Source of the DNA: Escherichia coli
GTDB taxonomy: Bacteria; Pseudomonadota; Gammaproteobacteria; Enterobacterales; Enterobacteriaceae
Assembly: GCF_003334255.1 (NCBI RefSeq)
Contig: NZ_QOWU01000115.1
Length of the DNA: 3,798 nucleotides
Reading direction: 5' to 3' (one strand)
Shown piece by piece: positions 2,163-2,198 of the stretch. Each line of letters opens with the position of its first letter. The stretch's first letter is position 1. Below the pieces are notes generated by a model. It saw only the letters and a list, made by a program, of their open reading frames with translations. It was not told the origin of the DNA and did no database searches. Both the position numbers and the translations under genes were made by a program.

Positions 2163-2198
2163 CATCAGATTGTGCTGATGTAAACAGTTAAGCACAAT
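2163..2198. promoter_or_regulatory. Two overlapping, mutually exclusive inverted repeats (candidate operator or RNA switch element)
   Basis: catcag (2163-2168) / ctgatg (2175-2180) with a 6-nt loop. attgtgct (2169-2176) / agcacaat (2191-2198) with a 14-nt loop. The second stem uses the loop and right arm of the first, so both cannot form at once. Confidence 0.3.

Follow-up and report, generated by a model that had tools for sequence, protein, structure and literature searches.

A lineage-specific hairpin at the upstream edge of the eib adhesin control region in a lambdoid prophage of Escherichia coli

The spacer upstream of the prophage adhesin gene eib contains a long inverted repeat, which we call IR1, that is a real, non-random and correctly located sequence feature. 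The "alternative hairpins" proposed for this site are one dominant hairpin that contains a sub-repeat of chance size. Most likely, IR1 is a hairpin of an ordinary kind, either terminator-like or operator-like, that one lineage carries at the edge of the adhesin control region; we infer, rather than observe, transcription across it, the strand on which it acts and any termination there.

Eib proteins are trimeric autotransporter adhesins encoded on prophages. They bind immunoglobulin Fc, make the bacteria resistant to serum and, in some STEC and commensal E. coli, are responsible for chain-like adhesion. Expression of eib is said to depend on host factors (IbrAB), as Sandt and colleagues reportedly found in 2002. 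The window, by which we mean the whole stretch of 3,798 nucleotides analysed here, belongs to a lambdoid Eib-type prophage of E. coli, and its nearest annotated relative is prophage P-EibA of ECOR-9 (AF151091), whose adhesin gene is eibA. Its main features are:

up to 1082: collagen-repeat tail fibre gene
1094–1687: DUF4376 tail-fibre-assembly gene (tfa)
1688–2494: non-coding spacer of 800 nt between tfa and eib
2495–3565: eib, encoding a YadA-anchor adhesin of 356 aa
from 3656: start of a 156-aa open reading frame (ORF-156)

The tail fibre gene has long collagen-like Gly-X-Y repeats (window positions 1–780). After eib, a hairpin (GGCAGGCACAGGAGTTTTGCCTGCC) followed by a T-run at 3593–3630 is terminator-like and corresponds to the second "stem_loop" annotated in P-EibA. 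Of 5426 complete E. coli genomes, 27 have the spacer, at one to five places in each and always together with eib; no spacer without eib was found among these genomes. Two contig scans of other bacteria, with one genome per species, gave either zero matches or chance matches in unrelated taxa, so that the element is restricted to prophages of E. coli. A minus-strand open reading frame across the hairpin (36 aa in the window, 49 aa in the PhiR5_2 annotation) was rejected because its frame is broken by an 11-nt repeat and nothing supported it as a gene.

The repeats themselves are as follows, with the long repeat defined on the plus strand:

2163–2168/2175–2180: short inverted repeat catcag/ctgatg, 6 bp with a 6-nt loop, nested in the 5' half of IR1
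2169–2176/2191–2198: inverted repeat attgtgct/agcacaat with a 14-nt loop, the core of IR1
2164–2176, plus strand: IR1 left arm ATCAGATTGTGCT, from repeat search and folding, invariant in 49 haplotypes
2177–2190, plus strand: IR1 loop GATGTAAACAGTTA, 14 nt, with core AACAGTTA
2191–2203, plus strand: IR1 right arm AGCACAATTTGAT, from repeat search and folding

Both inverted repeats of the original prediction, with their loop sizes, can be read directly in the sequence. The longer one had been expected to extend to about 10 bp through a G-U pair; it does extend through one G-T position, and reaches 13 bp instead of 10. By repeat search its 13-nt arms (2164–2176/2191–2203) are complementary at 12 of 13 positions, and the sole imperfect position, G2168/T2199, is a G-U wobble in plus-strand RNA and a C-A mismatch in minus-strand RNA. 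Because positions 2169–2180 are common to both stems, the short and long stems are mutually exclusive, so that only one of them can fold, as had been claimed.

We compared IR1 with dinucleotide-shuffled sequences, scoring any repeat whose 13-nt arms match at 12 or more positions around a loop of 3–30 nt. A repeat of this grade appeared in 1 of 300 shuffles of the spacer (1688–2494) and in 1 of 100 shuffles of the whole window. Perfect 6-bp repeats with a loop of 3–10 nt are much commoner: about two are expected per shuffled spacer, and 81% of the shuffles had at least one. By these counts the long stem is beyond chance and the short stem is not, so the earlier caution that short AT-rich repeats can arise by chance holds for the short stem but not for the long one. 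We also considered a larger diverged palindrome centred on IR1 and rejected it, since nothing beyond the 13-nt arms aligns and shuffled sequence scores just as well.

The two stems differ widely in calculated stability. On the plus strand the IR1 stem has −16.1 kcal/mol and the short stem −6.4 kcal/mol, and on the minus strand the values are −11.4 and −6.0 kcal/mol, so the gap in favour of the long stem is 10 kcal/mol on the plus strand and 5 kcal/mol on the minus strand. In the partition function the central pair of the short stem has a probability of 0.0000 (plus) or 0.0003 (minus). RNA of the 56-nt segment 2155–2210 folds with −17.0 kcal/mol (z = −3.6) on the plus strand and −11.8 kcal/mol (z = −2.4) on the minus strand. 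A riboswitch requires two exclusive folds of comparable stability, and IR1 and the short stem do not provide them. Because the short stem has an equilibrium probability of about zero, the structural switch of the original prediction is not supported. That the two hairpins alternate as a two-state RNA switch controlling a downstream event is highly improbable, even though the stems exclude each other and the short one, being transcribed first on the plus strand, could conceivably form transiently. Besides the energy gap and the chance size of the short stem, the site is without a conserved ligand-type core or an adjacent expression platform, the eib start codon is about 300 nt away, and Rfam, scanned with the entire window at E values of up to 1, gave no family match. 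A tRNA and tmRNA search of the window found none.

To survey variation we used viral and metagenome contigs, which yielded 49 distinct upstream haplotypes of the Eib type; the contigs with the window's own Eib type are genomic or metagenomic. The loci were anchored on a conserved 5'-UTR motif, so the hairpin itself was not selected for. Positions 2164–2207 are unchanged in all 49 haplotypes and form the longest invariant run of the 400-nt module. On the left, IR1 is bordered by variable sites at 2154, 2156, 2160 and 2163 (four within 21 nt) and by a repeat of variable copy number, and on the right by variable sites at 2208 and 2209, just beside it, and at 2230. C2163 is replaced by T in 10 of the 49 haplotypes, a change that retains a wobble on the plus strand only. 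Compared with its local flanks, the 44-nt invariant run has P ~0.014, a post hoc and local estimate that is suggestive; over the whole 400-nt module, with about 40 variable sites, the estimate is P ~0.3, which is not significant. The invariance of 2164–2207 means that covariation can be read neither for nor against the stem. Copy number of the neighbouring TTCAATGGTCA repeat is one in 32 haplotypes, two in 16 and three in one, and an extra copy creates a better −35-like element (TTGAGT/TTGAAT) for a promoter-like site on the minus strand.

Lambdoid and HK97-like phages carry "morons", additional gene cassettes that each have a promoter and a terminator of their own. We compared five lineages of the adhesin moron, two of which came from a protein-based search: Eib, L027, GER2, D and E. 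The IR1 arms are absent at the aligned place from the four sister lineages L027, GER2, D and E, apart from a weak counterpart in L027, where the arms are partly present and the T-tract that follows IR1 is largely missing. Neither arms nor T-tract were seen at the aligned place in GER2, D or E. The loop core is the only part of IR1 common to sister lineages, occurring in two of the four (L027 and E). Short dyads lie on the axis of IR1 in the same two lineages: AACT-AAAC-AGTT plus ATCA...TGAT in L027, and TAACTG-AA-CAGTTA in lineage E, the latter polymorphic in locus L139. Homology between Eib and L027 is clear from about 2175 rightward. In L027 the left arm finds only a poor match, so IR1 lies near the boundary with lineage-specific spacer DNA. 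In the comparison that the earlier claim called for, IR1 is invariant and without covariation among the 49 haplotypes, and its arms are missing from the four sister lineages.

Other elements are kept in all five lineages: a CRP-like site, a TAnAnT hexamer with TAAG-N6-TCC(T/G)A after it, a hairpin whose loop is U-rich, and the sequence TTTGTATACA. Since the four sister lineages without the arms keep every other control element, IR1 is dispensable for the moron as such. Among the eib cis elements IR1 is the least conserved, and it is probably a minor lineage-specific feature.

The surroundings of IR1 in the window contain the following elements:

2143–2164: 11-nt tandem repeat with units like TTCAATGGTCA, in 1.9 copies, immediately beside the IR1 left arm
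2204–2222, plus strand: T-rich tract TATTTGACTTTCTTCTTTT, directly 3' of IR1
2223–2238: CRP core TGTGACTAACTTCACA, an exact TGTGA-N6-TCACA, 19 nt 3' of IR1
2129–2158, minus strand: promoter-like TTGAGT-18-TAAATT for the tandem unit A, with a start at about 2122 and its −35 in the variable 11-nt repeat
2207–2234, plus strand: promoter-like TTGACT-16-TAACTT, starting 4 nt after IR1
2352–2393: second inverted repeat (IR2), similar in geometry to IR1, with 13-nt arms that match at 12 positions around a 16-nt loop
2012–1991, 1841–1824 and 1712–1695, minus strand: three canonical terminators, from the terminator scan

We tentatively read IR1 as an Eib-lineage-specific plus-strand hairpin with a U-rich tract, serving as a weak terminator or insulator. 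It would act as RNA on the plus strand, where the hairpin together with the U-rich tract UAUUUGACUUUCUUCUUUU would make up a factor-independent terminator or insulator, though a weak and non-canonical one. Transcripts running on from the tail-fibre/tfa operon and the AT-rich spacer would then be reduced before the CRP-controlled eib promoter region. IR1 lies between the lineage-only DNA of the minus-strand tandem units and the moron's ancestral control region, which comprises the CRP site, the promoter, the structured 5' UTR and eib. The repeat is non-random, its fold is stronger on the plus strand, and a T-rich tract follows it on the plus strand and not on the minus strand. The G-U wobble is likewise kept only on the plus strand, although a single wobble position says little about the strand, having a chance of 1 in 6. 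Only in the Eib lineage are the hairpin, the T-tract and the additional upstream DNA seen together, and because all three canonical terminators of the spacer point in the minus direction, IR1 is the only terminator-like element on the plus strand between tfa and eib. GER2 and L027 carry hairpin-plus-T-run, terminator-like sequences on the plus strand of the equivalent spacer, identified by eye and not scored by the terminator scan.

The details of the structure fit a terminator less well. The loop of 14 nt exceeds the usual 3–8 nt, and only 4 of the 13 pairs in the −16.1 kcal/mol stem are G-C, whereas terminator stems are usually G+C-rich (5–14 bp). The sequence after the stem, UAUUUGAC, has 4 U in its first 8 nt, and CUUUCUUCUUUUU follows the stem only if weak outer pairs up to 2210 form. 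The terminator scan called no plus-strand site at IR1. Q-modified late transcription would ignore such a hairpin, and a lysogen may have little plus-strand transcription to stop. The local invariance of the 44 nt favours this function, but not when reckoned over the whole module, and sister lineages dispense with the element.

On its left, IR1 borders minus-strand DNA built of tandem units. Units A (2165–1985) and B (1990–1815) align on the minus strand with a period of about 177 nt, and IR1 lies directly 5' of unit A, in the slot that matches the position of unit A's own terminator ahead of unit B. This alignment bears out the original prediction that the site stands at the upstream end of a minus-strand tandem unit. 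Three sRNA-like units can be recognised in 1688–2165 on this strand, each closed by GGGGAGC..CTCCCC plus a U-run; one of them is missing in P-EibA and in one other subtype, and units A and B have an exact 16-mer (TACGAAAATTCTGTAT) in common amid otherwise diverged sequence. The units have no match in Rfam. Short peptide reading frames in unit A were discarded, as by eye their frame changes between subtypes.

The three minus-strand terminators imply transcription of this strand, and IR1 could be an element of a minus-strand RNA, with the hairpin 5'-proximal to, or just upstream of, an sRNA-like unit A transcript that ends at the 2012–1991 terminator. We regard this as unlikely. By tandem periodicity IR1 does sit exactly at the start of unit A, and a promoter-like site (−35 at 2230, −10 at 2207–2202) would start transcription near 2195, but a start there omits most of one arm, and the better-scoring minus-strand promoter (2158–2129) starts downstream of IR1. 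Moreover, the stem on this strand has the C-A mismatch and the weaker z-score, and whole unit A RNA folds no better than shuffled sequence (z = −0.17).

On its right, IR1 forms the far upstream edge of the eib control region. The CRP core is perfect, and for scale, when up to one mismatch is allowed, such a core is matched in 34 of 200 shuffles. Variants are found at the aligned place in the other lineages (TGTGG..TCACA, TGTGA..TCAGA, TGTGA..TCAAA and TGAGA..TCATA), and in three of the five lineages the CRP-like site lies 189.5–194.5 nt upstream of the 5'-UTR anchor. In the window it is about 126 nt upstream of the inferred eib start, and this arrangement suggests that eib may be under catabolite control. 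The likely eib promoter, judged from its sequence, is at the −10-like TATAGT (2345–2350), which reads TAnAnT across the five lineages and lies about 115 nt past the CRP core and about 170 nt downstream of IR1; the EibG papers are silent on promoter structure. Closer to IR1, the plus-strand promoter-like site at 2207–2234 is altered at key positions by T2208G, G2209A and A2230G in 10 of the 49 haplotypes. A weight-matrix scan for sigma-70 promoters was set aside, its best sites scoring no higher than shuffled sequence. The suggestion of a compound or promoter-associated operator may be right. IR1 is next to a perfect CRP core and has promoter-like hexamers beside it on either strand, but the hexamers are no better than in shuffles, and the arms are not conserved in the sister lineages.

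Taken as DNA, IR1 would be an operator or upstream activating site shared by the divergent unit A and eib, with a regulator bound to the dyad and CRP 47 bp away, a reading that we consider rather doubtful. IR1 is an inverted repeat beyond chance, as an operator would be; it has next to it a CRP core whose position is kept across lineages, and it lies just upstream of promoter-like hexamers on both strands. Its inner TGTGC/GCACA elements are 21 bp apart, or two helical turns, and the variable repeat shifts spacing by 11 bp, about one helical turn. The short dyads on the same axis in lineages E and L027 also agree with an operator, except that the lineage E palindrome is polymorphic. The distance between the arm centres, however, is 27 bp, or 2.6 turns, an uncommon spacing for a dimeric factor, and sister lineages that retain both the CRP-like site and a homologue of ORF-156 do not conserve the arms. 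The promoter matches do not rise above shuffled sequence, and neither arm matches a nameable motif. By eye, the sites of LexA, FNR, IHF, TyrR, PurR, Cra, GalR and the Hin/Gin recombinases gave partial matches only and were rejected.

Candidate binders for such an operator are ORF-156, the host IbrAB proteins, RcsB or another host factor. ORF-156, which starts directly after eib and has its full length at 4959–5429 in the longer locus L001, had no match in Pfam or NCBIfam. Its structure model has a pLDDT of 91 when built from a 22-sequence alignment and 35 when built from the single sequence. The best structural matches are full-length FixJ, RcsB, EvgA and DesR, and its profile weakly matches LuxR/GerE helix-turn-helix domains. 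ORF-156 thus models as a compact NarL/FixJ/RcsB-like regulator, with a receiver-like domain that is without the usual N-terminal acidic pair and a LuxR/GerE helix-turn-helix. A conserved 60-aa reading frame follows it, and GER2 has reading frames of 166 and 60 aa in the equivalent position. The presence of a putative regulator of this family beside eib favours an operator, and ORF-156 is a candidate for binding IR1. It is also a plausible binder of another site, TAAGGAAATTCCGA (2348–2361), which matches the RcsAB box at 11 of 14 positions.

That RcsAB-box-like site is overlapped by the left arm of IR2, which lies in the conserved promoter/5'-UTR region and is the "stem_loop" annotated upstream of eibA in P-EibA. 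The conserved TAAG-N6-TCC(T/G)A box, present in all five lineages, follows there right after the TAnAnT hexamer (2345–2350). RNAalifold predicted no IR2 pairs. Further into the leader, a hairpin at 2422–2448 has a conserved U-rich loop (UUUCUUUAUAU) and stems that differ between lineages yet stay paired, with four pairs changed on both sides. RNAalifold also pairs a conserved GGAATAYCCU-like box (2396–2405) with the Shine-Dalgarno region of eib (2483–2492), through nine pairs with one compensatory change and more weakly in the window's own lineage; the predicted pairing makes it possible that the box is an anti-Shine-Dalgarno element and that eib is under translational control.

IR1 might also have no function. 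It is possible, in our tentative view, that a neutral quasi-palindrome near the edge of L027 homology was perfected by template-switch mutation ("quasipalindrome correction") and has since been carried along with the eib moron. The arms are confined to the Eib lineage. A weaker version is present on the same axis in L027, from which the window differs by approximately symmetrical 4-nt additions in both arms. The site is at the place where clear homology with L027 gives way to the weakly matched left arm, and the adjacent 11-nt repeat shows that it is prone to slippage. Against neutrality, the flanks vary and the 44 nt including the loop do not, but as all Eib-type copies are at least 90% identical, this invariance carries little weight. 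Neutrality also fits poorly with IR2, which shares the geometry of IR1 and lies within the conserved promoter/5'-UTR region, its left arm overlapping a conserved box, although the RNA alignment does not predict that IR2 pairs.

A more elaborate scheme, which is improbable on what the sequence offers, would make IR1, the 11-bp repeat and the CRP site a lineage-specific node that balances the minus-strand sRNA-like array against eib, with the dyad bound by ORF-156 or IbrAB. IR1 is chiefly useful as a landmark: it marks the distal end of the conserved control region of the moron, close to where homology with L027 weakens. The map of eib cis elements (CRP site, RcsAB-box-like site, structured 5' UTR and distal hairpin) provides concrete targets for mutagenesis.

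Several known systems resemble IR1 in part. Like IR1, the Rho-independent terminators and insulating hairpins that flank morons combine a stem-loop with a U-rich tract downstream of it in the coding strand, and are similarly placed between a tail-fibre assembly gene and an independently regulated lysogenic-conversion gene; IR1 differs in its 14-nt loop, its A-U-rich stem and a U-tract that is interrupted and offset. Dyad operators also occur in CRP-dependent divergent control regions such as malEp-malKp and araC-araBAD. These resemble IR1 in having a dyad beside a consensus CRP site between divergent promoters, which are candidates here, but the 13-bp arms of IR1 have a 14-bp spacer and are not conserved in sister lineages. 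The stem_loop of P-EibA (AF151091) is in the same spacer and shares the geometry of IR1, its 13-nt arms matching at 12 positions and its loop measuring 16 nt. It corresponds to window positions 2352–2393, 190 nt downstream of IR1, and its box is kept in five lineages, whereas IR1 is lineage-specific and unannotated in AF151091. Finally, quasipalindrome-templated mutation hot spots arise by template switching, and IR1 resembles them as a near-perfect repeat that apparently grew from a weaker one by symmetrical changes in its arms relative to L027; unlike such hot spots, IR1 is invariant against variable flanks, which hints at constraint.
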